Notes under the pieces: generated by a model
Seen by the model: only the letters and a program-made list of their open reading frames with translations
What the model was told of the DNA's origin: nothing
Databases searched by the model: none
Shown: positions 40,358 through 59,360 of the stretch, piece by piece
Numbering within the stretch: the first letter of the stretch is position 1
Layout: every line of letters begins with the position of its first letter
From: Terriglobia bacterium
GTDB taxonomy: Bacteria > Acidobacteriota > Terriglobia > 20CM-2-55-15
Assembly: GCA_965218585.1 (NCBI GenBank)
Contig: CBDCLE010000004.1
Location: forward strand, 143,006-207,005
Length of the DNA: 64,000 nt
Reading direction: 5' to 3'
Made by a program: the position numbers and the translations under genes

Positions 40358-40437
40358 GTCCTCGGAAACGACATTCTCGGGCGTTGAACAAGGGCCCGAA
40401 AACAGGGTTTTCAATGTCCGAGAAGGGGTATCAGGCA
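40358..40437. repeat. Array palindrome: inverted-subtype copy (40358-40388) back-to-back with a degenerate direct copy (40409-40437)
   Basis: GTCCTCGGAAACGACATTCTCGGGCGTTGAA; TTTCAATGTCCGAGAAGG. Confidence 0.6.
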
Positions 40438-40648
40438 CCGAGATCGAATTTCAGCGGCGAGCAGCGTGAAACCGCATTTACGAAATCGGCATTTTTCTTT
40501 GTCGACGCACCCGGTCAGTATATGCTGCCTGAAAAATCATGATATTTGAAGTCCCCGTCATGGTGGTCTGTCATGGCTCGTGGACGAATCCGGTAGATCG
40601 GGAGTAGATTGTGACCTGCTGCTATTCTTCTCGGATTGTCGGAGGCAG

Positions 40649-41041
40649 ATGATAAAAACGAAACTTGCCGGAATCATACTGGTTGGGATACTTGCCGGTA
40701 GCCTCCCCGTCTATGGACACCACTCCTTCGCTGCCATATTTGATGCCAATGATCGGATCGATCTGACCGGGACCGTGACCAAGGTCGAGTGGATGAGCCC
40801 CCACACCTGGTTTTACATTGACGTCGAGAACGAGCGTGGCGAGGTCGAAAACTGGGGTTTCGAGATGAGTGGCCCCAACATGTTGCTACGTCGCGGTTGG
40901 ACTCGCAACTCGCTTCAGGTGGGAGATGTGGTAACCGTCGTCGGCTCCCGCGCAAGGAATGGCAGCCTCAACGGGGCTGGCCAGACCGTCACGCTTTCGA
41001 CAGGTCAAAGGCTATTTGCCGGTCAGAACCCGACCAACTAA
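40649..41041 (+). CDS. DUF6152-family secreted protein
   Basis: GHHSFAA, WMSPHTW, GDVVTVVG. Confidence 0.87.
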   Translation: MIKTKLAGIILVGILAGSLPVYGHHSFAAIFDANDRIDLTGTVTKVEWMSPHTWFYIDVENERGEVENWGFEMSGPNMLLRRGWTRNSLQVGDVVTVVGSRARNGSLNGAGQTVTLSTGQRLFAGQNPTN

Positions 41042-41246
41042 TGGATTCGGCGCCAGCCGTTTCCTAAGAACGCACTCCGCCCGTTTGGTGTTCGGACGCA
41101 CGGTTCCAGGTTCCTCTCAATATCGACCGTCATCATCCGGTCGCCTTCACGATTGAACGGTTCACCCCCGGTTGAGCGACGGGACAGGTTGCGTTCCGCC
41201 GACTCTGAAAAGGGGCTGAAAATCACCACCGTCCGGAAATACCCGG

Positions 41247-42008
41247 TTAATTCGGAATCAGTTCGAGGTACTTGTTGTTCGTGCATACCCAATCCAGCAG
41301 TTCCGTGTCCGGCAAGAACTCCCAGTCGAGGGAAACCGTCCACTCCTCGGCGTACGTCTTCGGATCATCGATCGTGATCTCGACCTCCATGTGTCCAAAG
41401 TCGACCCGGTGGAATCGTTCGATGAGGTGGAGGGCATCGCTGTGCGGATGGCCGTTGTCGTCGAGCCATGTCCCCTCGTGGACTCCGACGGTGTCCACGA
41501 CCAGCGTATCGCCCTCCCACCTCCCGACGGAATACCCGAACCAGGCCGGCTCGCGCTCGTCCGGCAGGGGGCGGCCGTCGGTCAAGATCTGACGGTAGGA
41601 GTGGTAAGCCTCAAACAGCATCACGATCTGGTCGGGAGTCTGGATGACTTTCCTCGGGGTGGGGTGCGAATCGAAATCGGTCACGCTGTGCGGGAGGCAT
41701 CCAGCGCTGGGGCGGTCCCGGCCCTCGTTTGAGAGACGCTCCCGGTACAACTCGTCGGCCCACGGTTCCATGCGTACTTCGGTGTCCGCCGCGAGGTTGA
41801 AGAGATACCTCGGAGAGGGCGTGATCCAGATTCCGGAGAGATCCGGTGTCCCATCCGCGGTCCGCGGCACGGGCGCCTCGAGATCGGGCGAGCCGTCGGG
41901 CAGGCGCGGGATTCCCGGTGACGGATAGTTGAGCCATTGCGCCTCGGCCGTCGAGAAACCCAGCAACAAGGCCACCATTCCCGCTGCAATAGCCAGCTTG
42001 GTCTTCAT
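41247..42008 (-). CDS. Conserved secreted hypothetical protein
   Basis: Signal peptide, PDLSGIW, GYSVGRWEGDTLVVDT, DDPKTY. Confidence 0.85.
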   Translation of the reverse strand: MKTKLAIAAGMVALLLGFSTAEAQWLNYPSPGIPRLPDGSPDLEAPVPRTADGTPDLSGIWITPSPRYLFNLAADTEVRMEPWADELYRERLSNEGRDRPSAGCLPHSVTDFDSHPTPRKVIQTPDQIVMLFEAYHSYRQILTDGRPLPDEREPAWFGYSVGRWEGDTLVVDTVGVHEGTWLDDNGHPHSDALHLIERFHRVDFGHMEVEITIDDPKTYAEEWTVSLDWEFLPDTELLDWVCTNNKYLELIPN

Positions 42009-42084
42009 GCGTCCCTCCTAGTCAATGATCCGATCCGTTCGCGCTCAAACGATGCGCACATGCCTGTGGAACGCCAGATTACTT

Positions 42085-43467
42085 TCATCTCTCTGGCGCG
42101 ACGCGAAACTCCTCGTTGCGCGCAGGGACCACCGCGGTCTCGATGGGGCGCTCAAGCTGGGGCACCCAGTCGTATGGTACACGGTATGCCCGGTAGAAAT
42201 TATTGATGTCGCCACGGTAGTAGGGATTGATGTACTCCCAGACGATCTCGTTGTCCATGGTTACCTCGAAGATCCGGCCTGTAGCTCCCTCGGCAACCAT
42301 CGTGTTGCCGTTAGGCAGTCGCTGGGCTGAGCTGACGTTCCGACTGAAGAACTTTACCCGTCCCTGGCCGGGAACCGAGTACTCCCAGACCTTTTCAAAT
42401 GTCACTGGATCAATCTCGAGGACGCGAGACCAAAAGCGGCCTACCGAGGACCGACCCGTGGGCGCAGTCGGGGACGGTGCTCCGTAGCCGGCCGCCCCGC
42501 CGTTGTCAAAAACCAGCAAGTTGCCAGCGCCGGGCAACCCCTCCGGGATAAGGTGCGGGTGATGCTGGCCCACGATTTGGCCCAACTCTGCCAAGGCCGG
42601 TACGTCCCGGTAGTCGGGTCCCATTTTCCAAACAATCGTGCCTGTGCGATCGATGATGCCGATGATGTTGGCTTGACGGCTGCTAAAGATGACGTTCTCC
42701 GGGTGGAACCGTTCGTCTCCTTCGTCGTACCAACGGTTCGATCCGAGATATGTCGCACTGTTGATGTGCAGCCAGTCAGCGCTGCCCCGGTTTTCATTCC
42801 AGCCGGGATAGCGATAGATCGTGTTGCGTGCATCGCCGCTGAAGCCGAACTCCTCGACATGGTCGCTGGCCAGCCACTCCCACACGACGTCCCCCTCCCA
42901 AGTAACCTCCAGGATGTAATCGTCTTCGAGTAGCTTGTCGGAAATCTCAGGCTTCAGGACGTTACGGTGCGCAAGAATCAGCGTTCGTCCCCCATCCACC
43001 ATCGGCTCGGCGTTTGGTGCATAATAACCCACGGGGCTGCCCTCACGTTGCCAGTCGTGGTGCTGCCGGGCCATCCACCCGGGGTCTTCGCCTTCTTCTT
43101 CCACTTGCTCGGTCCGATCGAACTTCCAGACGACCTCGCCATCCCAGTTCAATTGCAGCAGCTCCAGCCCCTCCTGGTGACCCTGCCGCGACCTGCTGCC
43201 ACCAACGACGTAACCGCCCGGCAAAATACGAAACGGACTCGGCGAAGCCCCCACTTCTGTCCAGTGCCTCAGCAGGTTGCCGTTCATGTCAATGAGAGCA
43301 GCCCCCGCCGTAGTGTTATCCCCCTCTCGAATATCGAAGACGGTATAGCCACTCCAGGTCTTATCTGGATCAAACACAGTTGTCCCAGTCGGGAAGATCG
43401 ATTGATAGGTGAATAGTAATGACGGCGTCAGAACAAGTATCGCGGTCCCGAGAACGAATCGTCTCAT
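42085..43467 (-). CDS. Aryl-sulfate sulfotransferase family protein
   Basis: PTGTT, QHHD, DWLHINS, QHHP, FDNG, SSAQRLPNGNT. Confidence 0.9.
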   Translation of the reverse strand: MRRFVLGTAILVLTPSLLFTYQSIFPTGTTVFDPDKTWSGYTVFDIREGDNTTAGAALIDMNGNLLRHWTEVGASPSPFRILPGGYVVGGSRSRQGHQEGLELLQLNWDGEVVWKFDRTEQVEEEGEDPGWMARQHHDWQREGSPVGYYAPNAEPMVDGGRTLILAHRNVLKPEISDKLLEDDYILEVTWEGDVVWEWLASDHVEEFGFSGDARNTIYRYPGWNENRGSADWLHINSATYLGSNRWYDEGDERFHPENVIFSSRQANIIGIIDRTGTIVWKMGPDYRDVPALAELGQIVGQHHPHLIPEGLPGAGNLLVFDNGGAAGYGAPSPTAPTGRSSVGRFWSRVLEIDPVTFEKVWEYSVPGQGRVKFFSRNVSSAQRLPNGNTMVAEGATGRIFEVTMDNEIVWEYINPYYRGDINNFYRAYRVPYDWVPQLERPIETAVVPARNEEFRVAPER

Positions 43468-43559
43468 GTCTTGTTTCCTCTCCTGCAACTCGGCACACCG
43501 GGGTTGCTCACGACCCAACTGAGTGGCGGAGCCCCTGCTTGTCGCTCGTATTAACGAAA

Positions 43560-43705
43560 TCTGAGAAAGCTGAAGGCAGTCTATAGAAGCAGTCAGTAGC
43601 GAAGCAACGAAATCTCAACGTCCGAGAAGATGATTTCTCAGGACTTGACCTCGCAAATCTAGGGAACCGGCACTCGTTCCTTAAGTTCCCCAGAACCAGT
43701 TCAGG
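43560..43705 (+). repeat. Array repeat 1 (palindrome 43612-43653; kinase-tail remnant 43659-43705 on minus strand)
   Basis: TCTCAACGTCCGAGAAGATGATTTCTCAGGACTTGACCTCG; minus strand LNWF/ELKERVPVP*. Confidence 0.9.
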
Positions 43706-43752
43706 AGTGATATGGAGAGGTTCCTTCCTGCAACGAGCGAGTCCTCCGTCGA

Positions 43753-45417
43753 TCAGTCCTGATCGCCGGAGGCGTCGTAGACGATCCTTCCTCCTACGAT
43801 CGTCATCAGAGGTTGGATGTCCTTGATCTCGCCGGCTGGAATCGTCAGGTAATCGCGGTCCAGAACTAGCAGATCCGCCAACTTGCCCGGTTGAATTGAA
43901 CCCAGATTGTTTTCCTGAAACACGAGGTAGGCATTTTCGCGCGTGTGGGCGATCAAGGCTTCCTCGCGGCCGATCGCCTGCCTGAGGACCTCGGTGCCGC
44001 CTACCATCTTCCCGGTCACGGCCCACCAGAGGGTCGTGAATGGCCGGTACTGATTCACCTCGAACGTGTCGCTTCCCAGGCCCCACACGATGCCGCTGTC
44101 CTCGATGAGCGCCAGCGGCGGCATATCGTAGGAACGGTCGCCGTGCGCGCGGTTGAAGATCTGGCCCATGACGGTGGGCCGCGTATGTACCGCGAGGTAC
44201 ATCCCGAGATCCTTCATGCGCTCGATGTGTGAGGCGTTCACCTGGTCGACATGAGCCAATGCCCAGCGCAGATTCCGGATGGGGTACTCCTCGTTAATCA
44301 GCTCGATCTGGTCGAGGAACCCAGTAATCGTGTTCTCGATTGTGGCGTGCACATGCAGCGGTAATCCAGCACGGGCAACCTCAGTCGCGACGCGTCGCCA
44401 CTGGAAAAGCTGCTCTGGTGTTGGACTGGTTGTGCGTGCCAGCATGCTGTCGTGCAGCGGGCGGTATACGCTTTCTCCGTAGGCGGTCAGATCTACCCAG
44501 TTGTCGCCCTGAAACGGTTTCAACTCGGCGATCTGCGGCAGAAGGCGATCCACTTGGGCTGGGGTGCCGGATGCTCCCGCCGGCAGAAAACAGAAGAAGC
44601 GCATATTGAGCCGACCCTCAGCTGCAAATTGCCGGAACCTGTCCACGAGGTTCGCCGGGCAGGGACCGCCGGCCGTGGTAAGACCCGCTCGGTTCATATC
44701 GCGGATCATTGCCAGACTGCTGGATTCGAACAATTCTTCTGGCGGTGCGGGACGCGCTCGCCCAACTTGGTTGATGCCTTCAGCTTCGATCACGCCTGTC
44801 GGTCTTCCGCCATCATCGCGCACGATCCACGGAGCGTTCATCTCATTCAAGCCGATGGCCTCGATAGCGCGGCTGTTGAGATAGGTGTGGGAGCGTGTGT
44901 ACTGCAACAGTACCGGGTTGTTGGGAGCAACCCGGTCCAACTCGTCGCGTGTGAAATGACTCACGTCGTCTGTGAATTGATCCGTCGCCCAACCGCCCAG
45001 CGTGAAAACCCATTCGCCCGGACCCAGATCGATTGCCCGCTGGCGTATCATCTCGAGCGCCTCGGTCCGCAATTCCACCCCATCCAGACGCAGTTCCAAC
45101 TGCCAGATTGGACCTTCTTCCATGATGTGAGCATGGTTATCGATCAGGCCGGGAATAACAGTACGTCCTCCGAGGTCGATCGTTCTGGTATTGGGCCCGG
45201 CCAGTCGCGCAACTTCCTCGGTCGTGCCGACTCCCACGATACGTTCGCCCAGGACAGCCACCGCTTCTGCGATCGTGAAGCGGTCATCTACAGTAACGAT
45301 CTTTCCGTTGGACAGAACCAGATCCGGAGCCTGATCCTGTGCATGAGCCATCGATGCAGCAACGGAACTTGCTAACAGCACAAGAGCCACTGTCGTTTTC
45401 CAGTTCAAATGTTTCAC
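43753..45417 (-). CDS. Secreted amidohydrolase (Amidohydro_3/YtcJ-like)
   Basis: PGLIDNHAH, LGSD, GSIQPGKLADL. Confidence 0.92.
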   Translation of the reverse strand: MKHLNWKTTVALVLLASSVAASMAHAQDQAPDLVLSNGKIVTVDDRFTIAEAVAVLGERIVGVGTTEEVARLAGPNTRTIDLGGRTVIPGLIDNHAHIMEEGPIWQLELRLDGVELRTEALEMIRQRAIDLGPGEWVFTLGGWATDQFTDDVSHFTRDELDRVAPNNPVLLQYTRSHTYLNSRAIEAIGLNEMNAPWIVRDDGGRPTGVIEAEGINQVGRARPAPPEELFESSSLAMIRDMNRAGLTTAGGPCPANLVDRFRQFAAEGRLNMRFFCFLPAGASGTPAQVDRLLPQIAELKPFQGDNWVDLTAYGESVYRPLHDSMLARTTSPTPEQLFQWRRVATEVARAGLPLHVHATIENTITGFLDQIELINEEYPIRNLRWALAHVDQVNASHIERMKDLGMYLAVHTRPTVMGQIFNRAHGDRSYDMPPLALIEDSGIVWGLGSDTFEVNQYRPFTTLWWAVTGKMVGGTEVLRQAIGREEALIAHTRENAYLVFQENNLGSIQPGKLADLLVLDRDYLTIPAGEIKDIQPLMTIVGGRIVYDASGDQD

Positions 45418-45429
45418 AGCACCTCTCCC

Positions 45430-45768
45430 TTAAAAAATTCTCCTGTTGCTCGATTCCCGCACCAAGACACGATGCCACACTCCTCTGGGTACTACGACTG
45501 CTTGTCCGGGAGCGACCTCAATGATGTTCTCGTCGCCGTCTTCTTCCAAGATGACATCCACACGCCCTGAGATTAGGAAAAGAATTTCGTCGGCGTCTGG
45601 GTGCATCTCTCCGCCGTGTCGCTGAGGCGGATTCAACATTACCAATGGGGCCCCAATGACGAAGCCATCTACTCGTGGCGGAGGGCTTGATTCCCACGGT
45701 ACGAGACTCGCGCTGCCGTTGCGCTTCAGTCCGATAAGGGACCGCGATAGATCCAATGTCCTAGCCAT
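45430..45768 (-). CDS. Cupin domain protein
   Basis: EMHPDADE, VVPRGVWH. Confidence 0.87.
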   Translation of the reverse strand: MARTLDLSRSLIGLKRNGSASLVPWESSPPPRVDGFVIGAPLVMLNPPQRHGGEMHPDADEILFLISGRVDVILEEDGDENIIEVAPGQAVVVPRGVWHRVLVRESSNRRIF

Positions 45769-45798
45769 GAGAACTCGATAACAGCCTGACGCCTCAAG

Positions 45799-45839
45799 GT
45801 CAACGTCCGAGAAGATGATTTCTCAGGACCTGAGAATCA
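45799..45839 (+). repeat. Array repeat 2
   Basis: GTCAACGTCCGAGAAGATGATTTCTCAGGACCTGAGAATCA. Confidence 0.9.
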
Positions 45840-45846
45840 CGTTCTC

Positions 45847-46194
45847 CTAACCGAAGAAACACGCGTACTCATCAGTGCCAACGATTTGTAGAACTTCCTC
45901 TAGGTTGTCAGCTTCCGGGACGGGATCATAGCGGTGCCACCGGAGATCGGCTCTCTGCCAATAGATCTTCCACACGCCCTTGGCCTTGACATAGGTCGCC
46001 TTTGCGACCCCCGCCTCGATTTTGCTTCCGGGCTCATTCGGCGACGGATGGATCTCGAATATTTCGACGCTCTGTCCGCTCACCCTACTACTGAGATCGA
46101 TCTTATTGCGATGTTGAGCCTGTGGCCGGAGGCGTTCGACAAACCGACGCGCCACCATCTCATACTTCTTCGATTCAAATTCACTGAAGGCCAT
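45847..46194 (-). CDS. DUF3024 domain protein
   Basis: VAKATYVK..WKIYWQRADLRWHRY..CFFG. Confidence 0.88.
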   Translation of the reverse strand: MAFSEFESKKYEMVARRFVERLRPQAQHRNKIDLSSRVSGQSVEIFEIHPSPNEPGSKIEAGVAKATYVKAKGVWKIYWQRADLRWHRYDPVPEADNLEEVLQIVGTDEYACFFG

Positions 46195-46262
46195 ACTTTA
46201 GATTACAGATTAACGTGAAGTTTACTTCTCTTGTGTCGCTATGGAACACGGTGCATCCGCAT

Positions 46263-46310
46263 GTCAACGTCCGAGAAGGTGATTTAATAGGCGTTGAGAA
46301 TCATTTTCAA
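46263..46310 (+). repeat. Array repeat 3
   Basis: GTCAACGTCCGAGAAGGTGATTTAATAGGCGTTGAGAATCATTTTCA. Confidence 0.9.
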
Positions 46311-46460
46311 GGTCGTCCGCTGGTCCGGAACACTATACCTCGCTAGCGGGGAAAACTGCCGAGGCTGGTAAGCCTCGGCAGTGACATCCGGCCTTCGCCG
46401 GGGTGACTACGCTATAATCCGGCCTGACCATTTTTTCACATCACACAGAGGGACTGTGCC

Positions 46461-46646
46461 ATGAAGCGCCTCGTCGCTGTACTCGGATCCCTTCGTGGAA
46501 GAGCGCAAGATTCTGTTGCGTACCACAACACGCAGAACGACGCCAACAACATCCGCAGCGTGTGGCGCGACTTCAACGGCGATTTCGGCGAGGACCTGCT
46601 GGCCTCCCAATACCGGGCGCACCCGCATCTCGCGCCGGAGGAATAG
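46461..46646 (+). pseudogene. DUF3500-like protein, internally deleted (start + C-terminus only)
   Basis: NTQNDANNIRSVWRDFNGDFGEDLL. Confidence 0.65.
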
Positions 46647-46661
46647 AGGAGGAATACAGCT

Positions 46662-47933
46662 ATGTCGATTCGATTCCCAGCACTCGTGATCACGCTACTC
46701 GCGCTCGTGCCCTCGACCTTGTGGTCGCAGGCGGCAGACGGCCCCGAGGCGCGCTGGACGATCCTGCACGCCGGCACGGTGCTCCCCGTTCCTGGAGAGC
46801 CACCGCTGACCCGGCAGTCGGTCGTCATCCGTGGCGATCGGGTCGACCGGCTCCTCCCCGGCTATGCGACCGCCGAGTCCCTCGGCCTCGATCCGGCCGG
46901 GGTCGACGTGATCGACCTGACGGAGTATTTCGTCCTGCCGGGCCTCATGGACATGCACGTGCACCTCACCGGCGGAGCGCCCAGCGGGGTTCCGTCCGAG
47001 GCCGCCGACCTGTACCGCCTCACGGGGGGCATCGTCAACGCCCGCCTGACGCTGCGGGCCGGCTACACGACAGTGCGCGACCTCGGCTCGACGGGATGGT
47101 CGATCTTCGCGCTGCGCGACGGCGTCGAGGCCGGCGATCTCGAGGGCCCGAGGATGTTCGTCGCGGGGCACACGATCCGCAGCTCCGCCAGCGACGGCTC
47201 GGGATCCTGCTACAGCGTGGAGAGCTGCCGTGAGGCGGTGCGGCGCCAGATTCAGATGGGCGCCGATCTGATCAAGGTCTACGTAACCTGCAGCGGTACC
47301 CAGCCCTGCGCCCACCCGGACGCGCCGGCCCTCTTCCTCAAGGACGAGCTGGTCGCCGCCGTGGAGACGGCCCGGACGCGCGAGCTGAAGGTGGCGGCAC
47401 ACGCCCATACGACCGCCGGCATCAACCTGGCGCTGGAGGCCGGGGTCGACTCGATCGAGCACGGCTCCTGGCTCGACGAGCGCTCCTACGAGCTCCTGGG
47501 TCAGACCGGCGCCTACCTGGTGCCGACGCTAGCGGTAAAGGAATTCATGCGGCAGAGGCTCGACCAACGATCGCCGGAAGAGCGCGCACGGCTCGAGGCC
47601 TCCATGGTTGAGCACCCGCGGCGGGTCTTCGAAGCCTTCCAGGCCGGCGGCAAGATCGCGTCGGGCAGCGACGCCGGGGGCTCGCGGAATGGCGAGAATG
47701 CGCGCGAGCTCGAAACCTACGTCGACATCGGCCTGACCGAGATGGAAGCGATCGTCACCGCGACGGTCAACGCGGCGGCGCTGTTGGGCGAAGCCGACCT
47801 GGGCACGCTCGAGGCCGGCAAGTTTGCGGACGTCATCGCCGTATCGGAGAACCCGCTCGAGAACATCTCGGCGTTGACCGACGTCGACTTCGTCATGAAG
47901 GGCGGCACCGTCTACGCGACCCTTCGCGACTGA
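46662..47933 (+). CDS. Metal-dependent amidohydrolase (Xaa-Pro dipeptidase-like)
   Basis: PGLMDMHVH, GYTTVRD, AAHAH, SIEHG, GSDAG. Confidence 0.93.
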   Translation: MSIRFPALVITLLALVPSTLWSQAADGPEARWTILHAGTVLPVPGEPPLTRQSVVIRGDRVDRLLPGYATAESLGLDPAGVDVIDLTEYFVLPGLMDMHVHLTGGAPSGVPSEAADLYRLTGGIVNARLTLRAGYTTVRDLGSTGWSIFALRDGVEAGDLEGPRMFVAGHTIRSSASDGSGSCYSVESCREAVRRQIQMGADLIKVYVTCSGTQPCAHPDAPALFLKDELVAAVETARTRELKVAAHAHTTAGINLALEAGVDSIEHGSWLDERSYELLGQTGAYLVPTLAVKEFMRQRLDQRSPEERARLEASMVEHPRRVFEAFQAGGKIASGSDAGGSRNGENARELETYVDIGLTEMEAIVTATVNAAALLGEADLGTLEAGKFADVIAVSENPLENISALTDVDFVMKGGTVYATLRD

Positions 47934-48015
47934 AGGTCAGGCATCGCGTCGGCGAGCAGCTGCGCGTACCCGAAGTACCAGACGAGCACGCCGGCCGATC
48001 ATACGCTCGGGGCCG

Positions 48016-52674: not shown

Positions 52675-52732
52675 ATCTAGCTACATGTAGGATTTATTAG
52701 CCAAGAAAACTGTCAGCGCTGTAATGCGGCCA

Positions 52733-52822: not shown

Positions 52823-52928
52823 TGTTCATTTGGGAGGCGAAGCGCCAGCCGCACTGCACCGATATCGGGGAACCGCTCTCCGAGGGGCTTCCGCAGGCAC
52901 AGGCGCAGCGTCTGACGGCGGAGTTGCC

Positions 52929-55421
52929 TCAGAACTGAAATCGAAGCCCGATCTCGATCTCTCGCGGATTCTGAGCGCTTGTCGGCAGGCCGAAATTGGG
53001 GGAGGTCATCACGCCCGAAGGCAAGTTGAAATTCACGTTGTTGAAGGCGTTGGTAACATTTGCGAACACATTGAGATTGGTTCGGGTTCGGCCAGGTGCT
53101 CCGGCCGCGTCGAAGAAGAATGCTTTGGAGATGTTGAAATCGAAACGGAGAAACTTCGGCCCGTCACCCGCGTTTGGTGGCACGCCTCGAGGCCGATCGG
53201 TTAGATGGCCGTCCTGGTTCTCGTCCGTTCCCGTCGTGATGTTGTAGCGTTGGCCGCTGTTGGCCGATGTCGTCGCTGTCAGGAATATACCCAGCGGGAG
53301 CTGCGCGTTTGCCGTGCTGCTGAGTGTGTGCGCTGGGAAAAAACTACCGAGACCCCACTCCGCCCGGAGATCGTAGTTATCCGCGGGAAGAGGGTCCCTC
53401 GCATTCGGACCACCGTTGCTGTGGACTCTCTGAAACTGGTAGTTCGCCGACACGTTGAAGATGCTGAACCTCTGCCGATACGACAGTCGAAACGAGTGGT
53501 GGACCGCGGCCCGCGTACCCTCCAGATTGAGGATTTCTTGTTTCGTTGGATCCGGGCGAACACAGGTCTCCAGGCTCTGATCCTTCGTGCAGGAACGCCG
53601 CACCGACGCGGTGATGTCGTACGGCGCATTCACGTCTCTGAACCGCATTCGATGCACATCGTGCTGATACTCATATGCGGCGCTCAGGAACAGGTTGGTC
53701 AAGAATGTCCGTTCAATTGAAAGCATTCCGACCGTGAGATAGGGTGCCGACAGCGTTGGATCCGTTATCCGAACCGACGGCAGCAGATTCTGGACGGTTC
53801 CGGACTGAAAAGGATCCGGATAGGAGGGATCGTCGATGACGATCTCGAACTGACGCGTTCCGTCCAGCCGCCGCTGCCCCTCAACCAGATCGATATCGAA
53901 GCTGTTGTAGAAAATCCCGAAGCCGCTTCGCATGACCGTGGCCCGGCCGAGGGCATAGGCCAACCCCAACCGGGGGCCGAAGTTGTCCGCATCGTTCAGG
54001 TTCGTTTGCCAGTCATAGCGAAACCCGTAATAGAGGGTCAGCTCCGGGGTCAGCTTCCAATCGTTCTGCATGAAGAACGCCAGCTCCAGCTGGTTGGTAT
54101 CTAGCAGCGGCTCGCCCCGGACTACCCGATACTGGAACGGCCGCCCCTGGTTGAAATCGTCCAGGCTCGAAAACGTGAAGGTTCCGTTGAAGTTTGCCGT
54201 CGACTGGGCCCGATTCTTCCGGTATCTTCCGTCGACTCCCGTCCGGATCGTCAGGTTTTCCGACAGGTGCGTATACAGGTTGCCTAACTCGTAGATGCGG
54301 CCATACCTCTCAGAGCGGTTCTGCGCGCCGCCGCTGCTGAATGCGTCGAGGACATCGATTCGGAAGCCCTCCGTGTCCGGGATAGTCTCCTCGTAATTGC
54401 TGCTGTACGCGAAACGCATCTCATAGATGCGCTCGGCCGACAGCCGCGAGAACTGCCTCAGGTCGACGTACCAACCGTGGCCCTCGGTGGTCCATGCGCG
54501 TTCAGGCAACGTAAACCCACCGATGCCTTGGTTCTCGAAGGAGTGAGGGAAGTAGCCAGTCTCGAACGTCAGGGAATGGTTCTCGGCGAGCTGGTACGTT
54601 CCGCCGGTGCCGAACGACCGGTTGGTCGTCGGTCGCACGATCTCACGTGAAAACGCCGATCCGTCCGCCAGCGTGGCATTGATGGTTTCAACATTCTCGG
54701 CTTCGTTCTGGCTGCCTCGGAAGCTCATCGTCAGGTGACCCGGAACGACGGGCCCACTGACATTGAAACTCGTGTCCCGCTCCTGATACGGGGGTTTCAC
54801 GGTCGGCACTCTCCGGCCCCGGTTGTAAGAGCGCCGGCTGGCGTTCAACGATTCGTCAATGATCAGGAACTGCACGTTGCCGTGAAACGCACCGGCGCCG
54901 CCCCGCTCGATCACTTCCGCTCGGCGCGGGCCACTGCCGATCCGGTAGAATCCCTCCTCGGCGGTGAACACGTTCGGGTAGAGCCGAACATATTGAGTCT
55001 GCTCGGGCGGACCGCTCGGCTGTAGTTCGTCAGCCGGGAGCGCCTCGGTCGTTTCCAGATACTGGCTCCAGGCCCGGCGTTGTGCATCAGTGAGGTAATC
55101 CTCCAGGCGCGCGAGAAACTCATTCTCCATCCACTCGATTGCAGAACGCAGCCGGTCCGATTGCTGTCCCTGGGTGGGGCCCGCGCTGAAATCCATCAGG
55201 TCGCCGAACAGCTCTTCAGACGCCTGACGTCGGTCTTCCATCATCAATATGATGGCGCTGTCCTGCGAGTCGGTGAACGGGACCGCCGCTTCGTCTAGGA
55301 CGCCCTCGACCTCCAGCTTCAGCACTGGAAGGGGATTCTCCGCCGACGGTCTCCCATCCTGGGCCATAGCAAGAATGGACAGGGCTCGGAAGAGAAGGAT
55401 GAGGGCGAGTGAAGTTCTCAC
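52929..55421 (-). CDS. TonB-dependent receptor-like outer-membrane beta-barrel protein
   Basis: FMQNDWK..YGFRYD, FGPRLGLAY, C-terminal PREIEIGLRFQF. Confidence 0.87.
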   Translation of the reverse strand: MRTSLALILLFRALSILAMAQDGRPSAENPLPVLKLEVEGVLDEAAVPFTDSQDSAIILMMEDRRQASEELFGDLMDFSAGPTQGQQSDRLRSAIEWMENEFLARLEDYLTDAQRRAWSQYLETTEALPADELQPSGPPEQTQYVRLYPNVFTAEEGFYRIGSGPRRAEVIERGGAGAFHGNVQFLIIDESLNASRRSYNRGRRVPTVKPPYQERDTSFNVSGPVVPGHLTMSFRGSQNEAENVETINATLADGSAFSREIVRPTTNRSFGTGGTYQLAENHSLTFETGYFPHSFENQGIGGFTLPERAWTTEGHGWYVDLRQFSRLSAERIYEMRFAYSSNYEETIPDTEGFRIDVLDAFSSGGAQNRSERYGRIYELGNLYTHLSENLTIRTGVDGRYRKNRAQSTANFNGTFTFSSLDDFNQGRPFQYRVVRGEPLLDTNQLELAFFMQNDWKLTPELTLYYGFRYDWQTNLNDADNFGPRLGLAYALGRATVMRSGFGIFYNSFDIDLVEGQRRLDGTRQFEIVIDDPSYPDPFQSGTVQNLLPSVRITDPTLSAPYLTVGMLSIERTFLTNLFLSAAYEYQHDVHRMRFRDVNAPYDITASVRRSCTKDQSLETCVRPDPTKQEILNLEGTRAAVHHSFRLSYRQRFSIFNVSANYQFQRVHSNGGPNARDPLPADNYDLRAEWGLGSFFPAHTLSSTANAQLPLGIFLTATTSANSGQRYNITTGTDENQDGHLTDRPRGVPPNAGDGPKFLRFDFNISKAFFFDAAGAPGRTRTNLNVFANVTNAFNNVNFNLPSGVMTSPNFGLPTSAQNPREIEIGLRFQF

Positions 55422-55587
55422 AAAAGGGGCTCCACGGGCAATCGGAAACTATTTTAACCGAACCTCCGCACACGTGGATGGGAACCGTAGCAGGCAGTCG
55501 GTCAAGATCCAGCGGCGAATGACAACGCTATGAGGATGTAATTTGTCCGAACCGTTCTTACCTCACAAATAGAATGGCTTTGCTCCG

Positions 55588-55629
55588 ATTCTCAACGTCC
55601 GAGAAGGTGATTTGTCGTTACCTTGAGAG
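55588..55629 (+). repeat. Array repeat 8
   Basis: ATTCTCAACGTCCGAGAAGGTGATTTGTCGTTACCTTGAGA. Confidence 0.82.
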
Positions 55630-55764
55630 CCTCTTGCTAAGGATTCTGCGTTTACAGAGTGACGTCCCCCAATGAATCGGGGCCGTCCGACAGAACCCAC
55701 TCTGGACCAGTGGGTCATTTCGCAACGTGGAGGTCGATTTCGATGAGAGATCGACGGTGGTGGA

Positions 55765-56849
55765 CTAGAAGTCGCCAGCGCATTCAGTGGCGAGCCTGTG
55801 CCGTCTTCCACTGCGAGCGGAGCCGCGACCAGCATGAACTCCCAACGGTTCAGCTGCGCCGCGGTCTGGGCGAGCGCTTCCAGGTCCTGATTATCGAACA
55901 AGTCTATTCCCATCGCCACTATCGTCAACATGTGCACCGGGAGTCGCACATCATCGACCTGAGACGGCACGACGTCCAGCGCGCTGTCGCTGCCCATGAA
56001 CGAGACGTCACGTGCCCTCACCCAAGGCATCGCCGACGCGTGGAGTCCCGCGCTCTCGGCGGCAACATCCCAGGGGCCGAGTTCCGCGCGGCGGGCCCAG
56101 CGGCCAGTACGAACGAAGATTGCGTCGCCGGGTCGCACAGTCACGCCCGCCATCTCTTCCCACGCATCGAGGTCCTCCATGTAGATCGGTGTTCTGGGTT
56201 CTAGGTACGGAACGCCTTTGAGGCGAGGAATATCGAATAGCACCCCGCGGGTCACAATACCCTCTTGCAAGTTGAGAATGGAGGCGTTCGAACAGCCTGC
56301 TTCTGTGATCGTGTCCTCGGTCGCACCGTTGTACATCTGGCCCTTGTACATGATGTGACACAAGGCGTCGATGTGGCTATGTGCGTAGCCATGGTAGGCG
56401 ATGCTGTACTGGTCGAGGGCGCCGCTCATGAGCGCGGGCTCACCGGACAGATCAGGGAAGCTCAACATCGCGTGTCCGAACGGCTGTGGAACGTCGTCGG
56501 CTTCGTCCGTCAGGAGTCGGTGGGCAAGTGATACGGTGATCCCATCGGTGGCCAGCGCGATTGCCTCTAACCGCTTAGCGGGCGTGATCAGATTTGCCGC
56601 TCCCAATTGGTCATCAGAACCCCAACGGCCCCAGTTCGACAAGTCGTCCATGAGGCGTTCGATGTCCGACTGCGCGAGGTCGTGCGACTCGGGCGTAACT
56701 GCTGGGGGAACATAGTCCGAAACAGACGACGCGGTGTCCTGCGGTAGATTGGCGGTCTGCTCGATATCCGTTGCGCATCCGACGAGCGCGATAATGAGAA
56801 CTACCTGCAGTGAGCCTCTCGGCAGCAGTCCCAGTTTATGTTTGGTCAT
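55765..56849 (-). CDS. Cyclase-family metal hydrolase (lipoprotein); ORF-track extension to 55563 is probably a terminal frameshift
   Basis: NWGRWG.DDQLG, HSHIDALCH, RTG, GTGSPLN. Confidence 0.88.
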
Positions 56850-56920
56850 ATATCCCTCCAAAAAAGGCATCGTACGGGCCGAATTTTGTGCCTGCTGTAA
56901 GAGCCATTGGCTCGGGACCT

Positions 56921-57087
56921 TGTCTCTGATGTTACTAGAGGTGGAAAAGCTGGAGAAAGTCTATAGAACGAGCGGGTTGGAAGCAATGGTTGGAAGCAAC
57001 CGAATTCTCAATGTCCGCCAAGATGATTTAACAGGCGTTGAGAATCATTTTCATCGTTTAAGGCACGGACACGCGTTCTTTCAGTCG
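56921..57087 (+). repeat. Array repeat 9, long form
   Basis: Extension shared with 48016; palindrome 57004-57045; minus strand RLKERVSVP* in frame after the hydrolase stop. Confidence 0.9.
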
Positions 57088-57924
57088 TCACTCGAGTCCT
57101 TGACTCGCCATCGCTCGCTTAAATGCTTCAACACCCTCATTGACGGCGCGCGTCGAGATGTCTGATGGAGTCAAGAGATCAAAACCGTGAACCGTGCCCG
57201 GATAGTTGTGTAGTTCGACCTGAACACCGGCTGCCATCAGCCGCATTGCGTATATTATTCCTTCGTCACGCAGGGGATCGTGTTCGCACGTCATCACATA
57301 AGCCGGGGGCAACCCAGACAAATCATCCGCACGTGCCAGAGCCGCATAAGAGGACACGTTGCTTCGGTCTCTACCGATGTACTGGTCCCACATGTCTAGC
57401 GTGTTCTGAGAATCCCAGATATACAAACCCGCGCCGTCTTTCATCGATAGTGTCTCACAACGATCATCAACAGCAGGATAGATCAGCATCTGGAACGCCA
57501 CATCGGGACTGCCGCGATCGTGCGCCATCAACGCAACTGCTGCCGCGAGATTGCCACCCGCACTGCCGCCGCCAATCGCGATCTTTGCCGGATCGATCAT
57601 GAGTTCTTTTGCGTTCGCAGCTACCCACTGCAAGGCCGCGTAGCAGTCTTCAACGCCGGCCGGAAAAGGGTTTTCAGGAGCCAGCCGGTAGTCCACACCT
57701 ATAGAGACTGCCCCGCCCTCTGCTGCCATGATCAGACAGCGGGGATGTTCTATCTCCAGATCGCCTAGGACGAATCCTCCACCATGAAAATTGACAAAGG
57801 CCGGTCCTGCTTGGGCGCGGTCTTTGGGCATGTAGATACGAATCGGCACTTCGGGTCCACCGTCTGTCCTCTCTATTGTCCGCTCAATTTCATCGACTCG
57901 GTCATCGGGCGGTATTTCCTTCAC
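57088..57924 (-). CDS. HSL-family alpha/beta hydrolase
   Basis: HGGGF, YRLAPE, GGSAGG, DPLRDE, HGF. Confidence 0.92.
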   Translation of the reverse strand: MKEIPPDDRVDEIERTIERTDGGPEVPIRIYMPKDRAQAGPAFVNFHGGGFVLGDLEIEHPRCLIMAAEGGAVSIGVDYRLAPENPFPAGVEDCYAALQWVAANAKELMIDPAKIAIGGGSAGGNLAAAVALMAHDRGSPDVAFQMLIYPAVDDRCETLSMKDGAGLYIWDSQNTLDMWDQYIGRDRSNVSSYAALARADDLSGLPPAYVMTCEHDPLRDEGIIYAMRLMAAGVQVELHNYPGTVHGFDLLTPSDISTRAVNEGVEAFKRAMASQGLE

Positions 57925-57987
57925 TCCCCAACTCCCTCCTTCTCCGAGGAGTGGCGCTTTTGGGGGGCCCTTGCTCGTTATGTGGCT

Positions 57988-58170
57988 CTAGAACCGAGGA
58001 ACAACCGGCGGTGGTGGAGGCAATGCACCACTCGAACTGCTCGCGCTGGAACCGTCGCTACTGCTGCCTCCAGCGTCCCCTCCACGCAGCAGGCGGAGCT
58101 GCTGCTTCGTCAATCGTTTCCAGAACCAATCCTTGCCTTTACTGTTTTTCTTCGTCTGCATGTGTTTCAT
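57988..58170 (-). CDS. Small peptide with double-glycine-type leader
   Basis: GGGAG close to ATG; LTKQQLRLLRGG followed by a Ser/Gly/Pro-rich core. Confidence 0.5.
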   Translation of the reverse strand: MKHMQTKKNSKGKDWFWKRLTKQQLRLLRGGDAGGSSSDGSSASSSSGALPPPPPVVPRF

Positions 58171-58176
58171 CTCCCT

Positions 58177-58215
58177 TTCTCAACGTCCGACAAGATGATT
58201 TAACAGGACTTGACC
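58177..58215 (+). repeat. Array repeat 10
   Basis: TTCTCAACGTCCGACAAGATGATTTAACAGGACTTGACC. Confidence 0.9.
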
Positions 58216-58237
58216 ACCCTATGACCCAATCACCCAC

Positions 58238-59098
58238 TCATTCGCCGGAACCCCCCACGCATAAGGCCCGGACGCGGTAGGAGTCGCTGACGGCGGTCAA
58301 GTAACGAAGGGTACTGGTGAAGTTGAAGAGGTACGCACGCGAGTCTTCGCCCGTGGAAGTCCAGACCCAGATACCGCTCAGCCGGAACGGGTCCCGGATG
58401 TGGAGATCGAAGACACCATCGCTTGTCAATTCGTAACTTTCGTTTGCGTCGTATAGAGACTCCACCTCGTCGATCGTTCCCAACCGCCAGTCCGTGTAGC
58501 CGCCCAGCGTCAGGTCCGCGCAATACTGAGTCGCCTCGTTCCAATCGACATCGGCCCCGTTGTCCCGGATCGTCCACATCAGCTCGTCTACCACGACGGT
58601 GCCGGCTATGGCCTCGTCGGATGGAAATTGGCTCACTTCCTGCGAATCGGTGTCCTCTGCACCAGCGACCACCAACATTCTAGAGACATCGCTGTGACCT
58701 TCTCCTTCAGCTAGGCTTAACGCGGTCCTTCCATCGTTGGTCTTTGCATTCACGTCGGCCCCGGCAGCGATCAGGGTTTGTACAACCTGCGCGTGGCCTG
58801 CGATGGCTGCAAGCCTGAGCGCTGTCGTTCCATCGCTTCCCGTCGTCGCGTTCACGTCGGCCCCAGCAGCGATCAGGATTTGTACAGCCTCCGTATGGCC
58901 TGCGATGGCCGCAAACATTAACGCTGTCGATCCATCGCCATCCGTCGCGTTCACGTCGGCCCCAGCAGCGATCAGAATTCGGAGGTCGCTCGTATCGCCA
59001 GTCGCGGCGGCTGTCTTCAAACTATCCAACTGGGCGTGCGTGAGCACTGGAACGATGAACAAGAACGGGACCACAAGCCAAATTTTTCTCATATTCAT
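58238..59098 (-). CDS. Secreted ankyrin-repeat + DUF1566 (Lcl) protein
   Basis: Signal peptide; three LIAAGADVNA repeats; LMW..WNEA..YC..L.LGGYTDWRL..E..SL. Confidence 0.9.
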   Translation of the reverse strand: MNMRKIWLVVPFLFIVPVLTHAQLDSLKTAAATGDTSDLRILIAAGADVNATDGDGSTALMFAAIAGHTEAVQILIAAGADVNATTGSDGTTALRLAAIAGHAQVVQTLIAAGADVNAKTNDGRTALSLAEGEGHSDVSRMLVVAGAEDTDSQEVSQFPSDEAIAGTVVVDELMWTIRDNGADVDWNEATQYCADLTLGGYTDWRLGTIDEVESLYDANESYELTSDGVFDLHIRDPFRLSGIWVWTSTGEDSRAYLFNFTSTLRYLTAVSDSYRVRALCVGGSGE

Positions 59099-59320
59099 TT
59101 CCAGTTTCTAGCTGCAGCAGTCCCTGGCCATCTCATCTCACGGTCTGACAGTCACCCTTCTTCGTGGGAAAGACCGCCCTTATCAATGGTGGGCAGAATC
59201 TCACTGTGGCCAAGTTCGGTGGCCGAATCCAAAGGTTTGAAATCGTTTTTCGCTCTTAGAGTGCGCACACAGAAAATCTTACTAAATGTTGCTACATGTG
59301 AGAGTTAATGGCAAGAAAAG

Positions 59321-59360
59321 GGTCAAGTCCTCGCAAACGACCTTGTCGGAAGTTGAGAAT
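59321..59360 (-). repeat. Array palindrome, inverted subtype, at the upstream boundary
   Basis: Reverse complement ATTCTCAACTTCCGACAAGGTCGTTTGCGAGGACTTGACC. Confidence 0.85.

Follow-up and report, generated by a model that had tools for sequence, protein, structure and literature searches.

Arrays of a 40-bp palindrome in a Terriglobia genome are probably integron-like cassette arrays lacking an integrase

What does an imperfect palindrome mark when it recurs in one orientation between unrelated genes? Such a repeat occupies part of the window analyzed here, a 64,000-nucleotide stretch of DNA from a Terriglobia bacterium, and a preliminary description of this DNA took it for the recombination site of a gene-capture system. 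Our analysis leads to a similar reading: the palindrome arrays are probably cassette arrays of an integron-like kind that lack an integrase, and the palindrome an atypical 40-bp recombination site at the boundaries of mobile modules. The repeat most likely marks swappable cassettes, because related species hold the same modules elsewhere.

We searched the window with the 17-mer TTCTCAACGTCCGAGAA, allowing up to 3 mismatches, and obtained 12 matches where 0.27 were expected; none of 100 shuffles reached 12. Ten matches were on the plus strand, at the first position of every standard site in Table 1 except 50787, and two were on the minus strand, at 40374 and 59343. The copy near 50797 has no recognizable left arm and was therefore missed by the pattern, but it was recovered by repeat family D3 (92%) and by an nhmmer profile. 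The copy at 40408, with two left-arm mismatches, fell below the nhmmer threshold. By pattern search, repeat family, and nhmmer together, all 11 positions listed in the preliminary description hold a copy, giving 11 same-strand copies from 40408 to 58216; its count of 13 follows when the two inverted variants at the array ends are added. Positions 1 to 40000 contain zero copies by pattern search or profile, as had been noticed, and Rfam yielded no match to the repeat.

Table 1. Sites, modules, and flanking features of the array, in window positions
Feature	Position	Strand	Description
Inverted kinase-type variant site, truncated	40351..40393	-	Pattern match
Degenerate standard site	40408..40447	+	Array's last in gene direction; back-to-back with inverted variant 40351-40393
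Module 1	40448..43611	-	DUF6152 (40580-41041, + strand), 253-aa ORF (41247-42008), arylsulfotransferase (42085-43518)
Standard site with extension type A	43612..43651	+	Extension about 45 nt more, to about 43700; pattern, nhmmer
Module 2	43652..45796	-	Amidohydrolase (43753-45417) and cupin (45430-45768)
Standard site	45797..45836	+	Right arm moves with DUF3024 module in three species
Module 3	45837..46260	-	DUF3024 (45847-46194)
Standard site, type B	46261..46300	+	Right arm CGTTGAGAA; left arm and center move with DUF3024 module
Module 4	46301..48096	+	Amidohydrolase (46662-47933), reverse orientation
Standard site, type B	48097..48136	+	Pattern match
Module 5	48137..50786	-	DUF6152, 274-aa ORF, cytochrome c
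Standard site, left arm scrambled	50787..50826	+	Center, right arm, and extension A intact; family D3, nhmmer
Module 6	50827..51878	-	DUF6282 (50873-51757)
Standard left arm and center	51879..51918	+	Right side is recurrent other sequence GATGGGTGATCTCAACCGGTC..; pattern match
Module 7	51919..52733	-	188-aa ORF
Standard site with extension A	52734..52773	+	Pattern match
Module 8	52774..55588	-	830-aa outer-membrane beta-barrel protein
Standard site, unusual right arm	55589..55628	+	Arm TTTGTCGTTACCTTGAGA, common to G003 copy of cyclase module
Module 9	55629..57004	-	Putative cyclase (ORF 55563-56870, reads into site)
Standard site, type B	57005..57044	+	Pattern match
Module 10	57045..58176	-	Esterase (Abhydrolase_3, 57088-57924)
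Standard site	58177..58216	+	Pattern match
Module 11	58217..59099	-	Ankyrin/Lcl_C protein (58238-59098)
Conserved leader and decayed 5' end of paralogous Ser/Thr kinase gene	59100..59319	-	Upstream of all cassettes; repeat family D12
Inverted kinase-type variant site	59320..59362	-	Center GGTCGTTTG; array head
IS3-family insertion sequence	59559..60875	-	99.7% identity to 12855-14171; beside array head, outside site

The element is roughly 40 bp long, with the form TTCTCAAC-GTCCGASAA-GATGAT-TTNNCAGGAC-TTGA(GAA), and often carries a 20- to 45-nt extension on its gene-proximal side. It lies 3' of genes with GTTGAGA(ATT) at its distal end, and every module starts with TTGAGAATT. In the commoner form, the fold-back does have a single bulge per arm, a C at position 4 and an A at position 25. 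Three of the 10 well-kept copies in the window (46261, 48097, 57005) show the AAC...GTT ends reported for some copies; overall, 18 of 182 copies have them. Stop codons were said to lie within about 25 bp of the repeat; this is so at 45847 and 58238 (about 7-25 nt), but at 50873 and 57088 the conserved extension intervenes and the distance is about 41-44 nt. Array genes are nearly all on the minus strand (14/16 by ORF and Pfam reading).

The array is not unique to this locus; the repeat family is genome-wide. This genome (G000) has 88 nhmmer profile hits, or 75 copies by pattern at up to 4 mismatches, with 77 of the 88 hits within 10 kb of another, and they form 17 chains spanning 156 kb with a typical strand pattern of +++++-. 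Among the other genomes of the genus (G001-G004, of which G001, G002, and G003 are sister species), G001 has 144 copies, G003 101, G002 8, and G004 1. Outside the genus, 3 of 36 genomes had one copy each, and a reversed-pattern control gave 0; the repeat family is genus-specific. Genome-wide scatter without module gain or loss at the boundaries, which the preliminary description associated with REP or terminator elements, therefore matches these copies only in part: they are genome-wide, but they are clustered and modules come and go at their boundaries, so that the picture as a whole does not apply. Modules have a median size of 1949 bp and reach 8 kb (126 intervals), which is large for cassettes. 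Co-orientation across arrays is moderate, at 21 of 31 Pfam-supported genes in the G001 arrays and about 70% in G000 by crude ORF calls.

The arrays carry accessory genes, among them hydrolases, DUF6152, and receptors, together with many IS. The 188-aa ORF of module 7 matched no Pfam family. At the array head, the kinase leader may be the promoter of the array; in G000, the kinase start MESGTKLGHYEI.. follows about 12 of 17 variant copies. The variant at 40351-40393 has no kinase leader after it and runs into the end of a dienelactone hydrolase gene.

Window modules matched scattered, unlinked places in G001-G004. The amidohydrolase part of module 2 has 94% identity to G001:C5, and module 9 has 90% identity to G003:C2:2630993. 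Individual modules reappear beside unrelated neighbors, in a different array or a different species, at 92-99% identity, and at the syntenic locus G003 has a single degenerate site versus about 10 modules in the window. The DUF3024 module is shared with G001 and G003, and so by three species, at 92-95% identity between unrelated neighbors. Its homology runs from one site's right arm to the next site's left arm and center, then ends; the sites compared have 6 left-arm differences and identical right arms. A 1289-bp module shows 99.3% identity between two G001 arrays, again with unrelated neighbors. By these comparisons the repeats bound modules, as had been proposed, with homology breaking inside the repeat.

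The breakpoints of recently shared modules do not fall at one fixed position. We located them between positions 3 and 4, 21 and 22, and 23 and 24, and beyond position 33, a heterogeneity that homologous exchange or repeated conversion would explain just as well as a precise enzyme. One boundary of the most recent transfer (99.3-99.75% identity) has its first difference exactly at position 4. Across 182 copies, left- and right-arm variants are unlinked: positions 4-11 and 22-38 show almost no association, while association within either block is strong (z up to 31). The histories of the two site halves are independent.

The center of the site is also the insertion point of three kinds of mobile element, assigned by matches to the NF033542 (IS110), NF033538 (IS91), and Phage_integrase profiles. 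One IS110 element (IS110-A) is inserted after GATGAT in 4 different sites, and a second (IS110-B) after GATGATTT. In G003, both copies of an IS91 element with an IntI/Xer-like tyrosine recombinase lie inside the kinase-type variant, each of their junctions showing GTTTG, and in G001:C3 a related element abuts a standard site after GATGATTT. Targeting of attC by IS110-family elements is known from the IS1111-attC group, and some IS91-family elements are known to include an additional tyrosine recombinase gene. As with these target-specific IS110 and recombinase-carrying IS91 elements, the insertions here are site-specific, at the palindrome center, but the elements are guests in the sites and not the sites themselves.

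Could these patterns arise from a passive or selfish dispersed repeat (REP-like, MITE-like, or a transcript 3'-end hairpin), with shuffling as a by-product of homologous recombination between repeat or IS copies and no dedicated recombinase? The repeat is genome-wide, intergenic, gene-oriented, palindromic, and an IS110 target, as REPs are; its breakpoints are heterogeneous, and G000 offers no candidate recombinase. IS110 elements at two site centers would, through exchange and precise excision, produce center-hybrid sites. We nevertheless consider this unlikely. Copies are concentrated in the 17 accessory chains and not spread over intergenic regions at large, and modules of a single gene with a site at either end are found again in other species. 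No case was found of the repeat alone gained or lost at an otherwise conserved junction. No T-run follows the hairpin, and fold energies are not different from those of shuffles (z -0.7 to -2.2). The RAYT-like gene of G000 is flanked by a different REP, GGGGTCAGAGCCCTA, which has 24 copies. Finally, three species whose coding DNA diverges by about 20% keep a 22-nt core at 95% or more, which points to selection on the sequence, though the copies were picked with that core.

Another reading is an operator for a dimeric transcription factor, with the accessory genes and kinase paralogues as its regulon. Conservation is dyad symmetric without covariation, and a variant lies about 110 nt upstream of kinase start codons. 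Standard copies, however, adjoin stop codons and keep no fixed spacing to starts, the next of which, by crude ORF calls, lies anywhere from about 0 to 700 nt away. Nor would an operator account for the unlinked halves, for breaks of homology within the site, or for the targeted insertions of three mobile elements, and we regard it as very improbable.

A more serious alternative, possible though not favored, is that the sites are genuine but unusually short attCs and the arrays CALINs of an ordinary integron system. The genus IntI would then fold the bottom strand and exchange it between G and TT of GTTGAGA, that is, between TCAA and C on the plus strand. The position of the site 3' of the gene, the distal GTTGAGA(ATT), and the common module start match integron geometry, as do type B copies (TTCTCAAC...GTTGAGAA) and the first difference at position 4 in the most recent transfer; IS110-family targeting of attC has its precedent above. 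Acidobacteria have taxon-specific chromosomal attCs according to Ghaly et al. 2021 (PMC8352920), whose published model has 106 positions and starts with GCCUAAC. The palindrome here measures 34-40 nt and its conserved span about 50 nt. Natural attCs measure about 57-141 nt, and our sites fall below that range. Stem covariation was absent, with a score below the shuffle mean and 76.6% of cells paired versus 77.0% in shuffles, and most copies have an interrupted inner stem (positions 17 and 29 fail to pair in 74 of 112). What is conserved is the sequence, not the fold, and the variable dinucleotides are placed symmetrically around the center, as a dimeric protein site would have them. There is one bulge per arm. 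The G of GTT (C at position 4) is kept in only 118 of 182 copies, and CG at positions 28-29, which would make a matching R'', in just 18 of them all. Movement of whole sites with their genes predicts linkage of positions 4-11 with 22-38, but these are unlinked, and the DUF3024 sites differ in their left arms only.

The distribution of integrases bears on the same question. Of the five genomes of the genus, three (G001, G002, and G003) have intact IntI genes, at 440-458 bits versus a cut-off of 265; across the family, 12 of 35 genomes had hits above this cut-off. Within about 10 kb of the sister-species IntI genes there is neither a site nor a repeat array; G001 and G003 IntI, having no array of their own nearby, need substrates elsewhere. 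In G000, no integron integrase was detected (TIGR02249 best 83.7 bits), contrary to what short attCs would lead one to expect, and IntI and site number do not track: G002 has IntI and 8 sites, whereas G000, which lacks IntI, has 55-88.

The array has no linked recombinase, and whatever enzyme might serve it must therefore work in trans, as the preliminary description supposed. In tblastn searches of G000, three IS91-borne recombinases found nothing closer than matches at the level of XerC/D (34-38% identity), and there were no matches to the IS91 transposases; IS91/recombinase elements are absent from the G000 assembly, which is 95% complete, so that the absence of a recombinase is not proven. 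We found no link between the repeat and the RAYT or dif of G000. As to the enzyme, our tentative preference is a tyrosine recombinase acting on the duplex site center, of the IntI/Xer-like kind carried by sister-species IS91-family elements; the genus integron integrase, treating the site as a very short attC and exchanging at TCAA/C, is only slightly less likely, and what probability remains goes to there being no dedicated enzyme. Since neither candidate is encoded in G000, its arrays are probably static now, resembling a CALIN.

Taking the arrays as cassette arrays, we infer a cycle of excision and insertion as follows. A module comprises one to three accessory genes, mostly co-oriented, and ends at its 3' side with an extension and one site half; the next site half opens the next module. 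Arrays usually begin with a paralogous Ser/Thr kinase gene preceded by the inverted palindrome variant. A module would leave as a circle when two sites recombine, although no such circle has been seen, and recombination of the circle with another site would insert it. Repeated excision and insertion could have built the 17 chains of G000 and reshuffled modules between arrays and species.

Judged by the definitions of Cury et al. 2016 (PMC4889954), the arrays share several features with CALINs and sedentary chromosomal integrons (e.g., Vibrio repeats): same-orientation imperfect palindromes after the 3' ends of unrelated accessory genes, modules found in other contexts in relatives, a site homogeneous within a lineage, no integrase nearby but IntI in the genus, and IS110-family targeting. 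They differ in that the site is about 40 nt against the 106-position Acidobacteria model, that sequence and not structure is kept, with the R'' box and G of GTT missing in many copies, and that site halves recombine independently. The genome also has 17 chains, with a median module of 1.9 kb and a maximum of 8 kb, and at the head of the arrays stand kinase genes accompanied by an inverted variant of the site.

Like REPs and REPINs with RAYT transposases, the sites are short, lineage-specific, abundant intergenic palindromes targeted by IS110-family elements. They differ in being clustered, in direct orientation, and coincident with module boundaries, and the RAYT-like gene here is flanked by another repeat. 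The pdif (Xer) modules of Acinetobacter plasmids are likewise discrete gene modules bounded by short dyad-symmetric duplex sites (arm-spacer-arm), thought to be used by a tyrosine recombinase encoded elsewhere. Sites of the pdif kind resemble the host's dif and alternate in orientation. The sites described here are in direct orientation and unlike the dif candidate of G000 (AATGTCGCATAATGAGTATTATGTCAAGT at C10:37497), and the arrays that they form are chromosomal and far larger.

A scan of the window with the 17-mer TTCTCAACGTCCGAGAA at up to 3 mismatches gave 12 matches against 0.27 expected, a number reached in none of 100 shuffles. Ten lie on the plus strand (40408 to 58177) and two on the minus strand (40374 and 59343), and an eleventh plus-strand site near 50797, whose left arm is scrambled, was recovered through repeat families and a profile. 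By these three routes, every site position in the preliminary description, which had read the palindrome as the boundary of an integron-like cassette array, proved correct, and the repeat family itself is confirmed. The absence of the repeat from the first 40 kb was also borne out, as neither the 17-mer nor the profile search found a copy in window positions 1-40000. Rfam at gathering thresholds returned only two ALIL pseudoknots across the 64 kb, both within IS3-family copies, and the site matches no RNA family.

Across G000, the genome studied here, in which the window occupies C4:143006-207005, we counted 75 sites at up to 4 mismatches and 88 with an nhmmer profile. The family is not limited to one locus, which speaks against the array as first proposed, while clustering speaks for it: 77 of the 88 profile matches lie within 10 kb of another and form 17 chains covering 156 kb, with the remaining 11 single. 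Sites within one chain all have the same orientation, and about nine chains, by our reading of the strand strings, terminate in one oppositely oriented copy. The core occurs in 8 of 41 genomes of the class: 55 copies in G000, 144, 101, 8, and 1 in the sister genomes of the same genus (G001, G003, G002, and G004, respectively), and one apiece in three genomes of other genera. A reversed-pattern control over the 41 genomes found none. Mean core mismatches were 2.04 in G000 and 1.55 in G001, where loci had been selected through well-kept copies. The exact 22-mer was found in one stretch of a same-family Terriglobia metagenome-assembled genome and in two metagenome contigs, in sequence collections that possibly do not cover near relatives.

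We made a gap-free alignment of 182 standard copies, to which G000 contributed 73 and loci in two sister species the other 109. At positions 0 to 21, the core TCAACGTCCGASAAGATGATTT is at least 95% conserved except at positions 4, 10, and 11, a figure inflated because copies were picked by the core. The right arm NNCAGGACTTGA (positions 22 to 33) played no part in the selection and is about 75 to 83% conserved. AATTC precedes the core in about 70 to 85% of copies, and the variable dinucleotides at 10-11 and 22-23 are symmetric around the centre GATGAT. The palindrome measures 34 to 40 nt, with conservation extending from about -5 to +45, in agreement with the earlier remark that the site is shorter than canonical attC. 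Three gene-proximal extensions recur: type A (CCTCGAAAATCAGGGCACCGGCACCCGTTCC...), which contains the motif AATCRGG (AAATCAGGG), type B (GAATCATTTTCATGGTCG), and type C, in which ...TTGTCCGAATAGCC and ATACGGCCAAG... form a small inverted repeat that has GTCCGA in common with the main site.

The palindrome can fold back with one bulge on each arm, as the preliminary description had noted. Single-strand fold energies of eight copies were indistinguishable from those of shuffles (z of -0.68 to -2.15) and so give no support for a stable structure. Stem covariation was absent among 112 distinct copies: paired cells made up 76.6%, against 77.0% after shuffling, and 423 of 500 shuffles equalled or exceeded the observed share. 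The score for covariation was 0.052, below the shuffle mean of 0.059. Positions 11 and 22 are unpaired in 74 of these copies. The sequence of the site is constrained, with no detectable constraint on its fold.

Intervals between adjacent same-orientation sites have a median of 1949 bp (n = 126; range, 339 to 7999 bp). Modules of the window array encode amidohydrolases, cupin, DUF3024, DUF6152, and DUF6282 proteins, cytochrome c, an outer-membrane barrel protein, a cyclase, an esterase, an ankyrin protein, and an arylsulfotransferase. Judged from ORFs and Pfam matches, the minus strand carries 14 of the 16 array genes, which upholds the earlier reading of nearly all and means that the 3' end of a gene faces the right arm of a site. 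Co-orientation is moderate elsewhere, at 21 of 31 Pfam-supported genes between two same-orientation sites in G001 (23 more were skipped) and about 70% in G000 by crude ORF calls. An ORF scan of the G001 arrays covered 124 ORFs, out of 305 listed from all loci. These included 9 DUF6152 proteins and 18 transposase or IS proteins, the remainder being mainly hydrolases, oxidoreductases, transporters, and kinases; no tyrosine or serine recombinase was among the 124. DUF6152 genes in the window and in G001 arrays often adjoin a gene for a 250-370-aa protein without a Pfam family, which suggests a conserved two-gene unit with no function assigned. The cyclase ORF of the window crosses a standard site, so that its last 20 or so codons are encoded by the repeat.

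Locations of arrays' modules, neighbouring genes, and mobile elements (window coordinates unless a contig, C, or locus, L, is named)
Feature	Location	Match or remark
Module shared with G001	43615-45438	G001:C5, 94%
DUF3024 module	45838-46285	G003:C2:4081275, 95%; G001:C9:1146024, 92%
Module shared with G003	55585-56892	G003:C2:2630993, 90%
Cyclase ORF	55563-56870	Runs through standard site at 55589 before its stop
DUF6152 genes in or beside arrays	38658-39071; 40580-41041; 48384-48824	
Variant site at head of window array	59320-59362	Decayed kinase leader next
Conserved sequence upstream of variant (GGYTRTATCTCYCATTGTTTCAATGGAAT...)	59363-59420	Also at 4-5 other G000 variant copies
IS3-family element, first copy	59559-60875	About 200 bp upstream of array head
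IS3-family element, second copy	12855-14171	
IS110-family transposase, 353 aa	36573-37634	16 identical-scoring G000 copies among 27 IS110-family matches
ORF with AAA+ and kinase domains	61015-62499	
Hairpin GTGCGGTCTATGACCGCAC in kinase leaders, examples	G000 C2:111683; C4:47091	
Inverted repeat closely resembling the hairpin	L077:11196-11293; L078:10284-10381	Two genomes, another genus of the family
Kinase leader broken by GGGAGAAAGGTACACCACCCATG..., example	G000 C9:142271	
Second IS110-family element at a site	G000 C10:2625	
IS91/recombinase right end in tandem	L069 (G001:C3) 5320-5530	..CAATTCCGATCAACACTATTGATTT, three times
RAYT-like Y1 transposase gene	G000:C10:115406-116261	
Sole dif-like sequence	G000:C10:37497	

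Searching the 19-kb array against the four sister genomes showed that its modules map to scattered positions. The DUF3024 module is particularly well delimited. Aligned from three species, it shows identity from within the lower site's right arm until past the upper site's centre. That right arm, TTTCTCAGGACCTGAGAAT, is the same in the three, the left arms differ at 6 positions, and the sequences beyond the module are unrelated. Within G001, arrays on two contigs (C2 and C6) share a 1289-bp module at 99.3% identity, and its neighbours differ on either side. The syntenic locus in G003 has a DUF6152 and 253-aa gene pair, one degenerate site, and then an ankyrin gene and a kinase leader, and the window has about 10 additional modules at that place. 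Module order across relatives, a comparison the preliminary description had proposed for strains, points to gain or loss at the sites, with modules scattered in sister species among unrelated neighbours.

The two halves of the site have separate histories. Over the 182 copies, positions associate within a left block (4 to 11; z of 3 to 13) and within a right block (22 to 38; z up to 31), with near-zero association between the blocks and weak association of the left flank with positions 4 to 11. Among pairs of copies with flanks at least 95% identical, the first difference fell at position 4 in 2 of 8 that share a left flank; the breakpoints of other pairs fell at 11, at 20 to 22, at 23|24, or beyond 33, with no uniform position. 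These breakpoints do not show one fixed crossover point. Either exchange occurs within the site, both at its TCAA|C edge and at or around its centre, or the core has undergone repeated conversion. In short Logan contigs from public runs, searched for excised circles, the many apparent site-site joints have 21 to 38 matching letters on the shorter side, which come from other repeat copies.

A cassette system is the best fit to these data, and that interpretation is supported. The sites would be recombination sites, a module would consist of one or more genes with the adjoining site halves, and arrays may grow downstream of kinase genes. The alternative, that the sites are passive repeats shuffled through homologous or IS-mediated exchange, we regard as improbable.

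The end copy of a chain is a variant site with centre GATCGTTTG or TGTCGTTTG. G000 has 17 real variant copies, about 12 of which are followed some 110 nt on by a conserved start of paralogous Ser/Thr kinases; several of these starts are decayed or interrupted. At several copies, conservation also extends about 60 nt upstream beyond the variant, so that the head unit is longer than the palindrome. Several G000 kinase leaders contain the hairpin GTGCGGTCTATGACCGCAC, and its closely similar counterparts outside the genus indicate that it is probably a second dispersed repeat family. Another G000 repeat, GGGAGAAAGGTACACCACCCATG..., probably an IS with about 67 to 70 copies by 14-mer counts, breaks at least one kinase leader. 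Near the head of the window array lies one of two copies of a 1317-bp IS3-family element, 99.7% identical to each other and each with an ALIL frameshift pseudoknot. An ORF beyond it encodes both a Ser/Thr kinase domain and a sigma-54 activator AAA+ domain, of which the C-terminal part is present; it is either a fusion of an unusual type or a kinase to which a gene fragment has been joined.

The centre of the site harbours mobile elements of three kinds. An IS110-family element of 1.54 kb with short terminal inverted repeats follows GATGAT in four different G001 sites, one of which is otherwise a 99.7-99.9% identical duplicate of an uninterrupted site. A second IS110-family element follows GATGATTT in G000 and in three places in G001. 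The third kind combines a 292-294-aa tyrosine recombinase with an IS91-family transposase (NF033538, 420 bits). The best NCBIfam matches of this recombinase are XerA and integron-integrase models, below their cut-offs, and the three elements are about 50% identical among themselves. Both G003 copies interrupt the kinase-type variant, GTTTG stands at each of their junctions, and rejoining their flanks restores an intact variant site. The element on C3 of G001, whose recombinase has 292 aa, joins a standard site directly after GATGATTT; its other end is rearranged, leaving only one clean junction. A six-copy G001 relative lies in extension C, between ...TTGTCCGAATAGCC and ATACGGCCAAG....

The same 9.4-kb C3 contig (locus L069) carries the right end of the element three times in tandem and three standard sites over its whole length, which would fit a small replicon or a collapsed repeat. 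G002, the genome with 8 sites, has a 311-aa tyrosine recombinase in 20 identical-scoring copies (more than 20 places, C41), which likely belongs to a recombinase-borne element present in multiple copies. In G000, the IS91-borne recombinases and IS91 transposases have no counterparts beyond XerC/D-level similarity.

The preliminary description had looked to a recombinase acting in trans. By coordinates, the 12 Phage_integrase and 8 resolvase matches in G000 are all more than about 5 kb away from any chain, so a search for a linked tyrosine or serine recombinase at that distance was negative. REP elements typically occur as inverted pairs flanking a RAYT (Y1 transposase) gene. We rejected RAYT as a partner, as neither of the two Y1_Tnp genes in G000 has a site copy beside it; the RAYT-like gene on C10 has its own REP in inverted copies (GGGGTCAGAGCCCTA / TAGGGCTCTGACCCC), with about 24 copies in the genome. 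MITEs insert as whole units with terminal inverted repeats and a target duplication, leaving empty sites in relatives. The loci we compared, not an exhaustive set, held no empty/filled pair, and the halves of the unit are unlinked. Sites of the pdif type resemble chromosomal dif and bind XerC/XerD. Xer/dif was likewise rejected as a partner, as the arms of the sole dif-like sequence in G000, judged by the familiar dif motif, are unlike the site.

The enzyme may be an IntI/Xer-like tyrosine recombinase acting on duplex DNA at the site centre, an assignment to which we give somewhat less than an even chance. A more far-reaching model would be a genus-specific, non-integron cassette system with a 40-bp dyad-symmetric duplex site whose centre is recombined by IS91-borne IntI/Xer-like recombinases or another enzyme, with over 15 arrays and as many as about 150 sites in a genome, and with each array growing downstream of a Ser/Thr kinase gene whose inverted variant docks a sister element. 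We consider this model rather unlikely.

Integron attC sites end in inverted boxes, R'' (RYYYAAC) and R' (GTTRRRY), and are about 57 to 141 nt long, with an R box, an unpaired spacer, an L box, and a variable loop. They keep their structure while their sequence varies, have extrahelical bases on one arm, and cross over at G|TT in R', the entire site moving along with the upstream gene. The sites described here could be very short attCs used by IntI, a reading to which we give a slightly lower chance than to the duplex-site recombinase. It would account for the integron geometry, the GTTGAGA at the distal end on the gene strand (118 of 182 copies, with C at position 4), the position-4 breakpoint of the latest event seen (an attC predicts a first difference there, as in 2 of 8 shared-left pairs), and the orphan IntI genes in the genus. 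Against it, the palindrome is far below attC length, keeps its sequence without covariation, and has one bulge on each arm rather than extrahelical bases on one. The G of GTT is variable, and R'' is missing from most copies: 18 of 182 have the matching proximal TCTCAAC (CG at positions 28-29), the commoner form being GTCAAG. The other breakpoints, at 11 to 23 or beyond 33, and the lack of linkage between positions 4-11 and 22-38 differ from whole-site transfer.

The distribution of integrases also bears on this reading. No IntI was found in G000, which is 95% complete; its best TIGR02249 score is 83.7 bits against a cut-off of 265. G001 (at C9:714608-715549), G002, and G003 each have a full-length IntI (440 to 458 bits), and 12 of 35 genomes of the family score above the cut-off. 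No site copy was found within about 10 kb of IntI in these three sister genomes, and a search for direct and inverted repeats, which is blind to attCs conserved in structure alone, found no repeat family beside IntI either there or in four genomes of other genera (G047, G048, G009, and G020). By the definition of Cury et al. (2016, PMC4889954), such array-less genes would be integrases of the In0 type. In Ghaly et al. (2021, PMC8352920), the Acidobacteria attC model has a CLEN of 106 and opens with GCCUAAC. Available portions of the literature on Acidobacteria integron-like cassettes, on attC and integrase-less attC clusters (CALIN) in Acidobacteriota, and on IS91, tyrosine recombinases, and attC contain no description of the site family. 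The preliminary description's view of a non-attC, undescribed system is plausible: its length, lack of covariation, and mostly absent R'' set the site apart from attC, while the geometry and GTTGAGA end do not.

Integrons are, to our knowledge, the one well-understood means by which single genes are stacked and exchanged, and the origin of cassettes and their sites is still an open question. Here, a probable soil lineage has about 3% of its genome (the 156 kb in 17 chains) arranged as repeat-bounded modules. Whichever enzyme acts, the arrays help explain how Acidobacteria assemble large accessory hydrolase sets, and their compact site lends itself to recombination assays. In length that site falls well short of attC, and its sequence is under tighter constraint. 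IntI genes lie elsewhere in the sister genomes, and the insertions at the site centre include related tyrosine recombinases. Should IntI act on these sites, the minimal attC would be smaller than has been supposed, and recognition based on sequence rather than fold would become testable; otherwise they belong to a second, independent cassette system.
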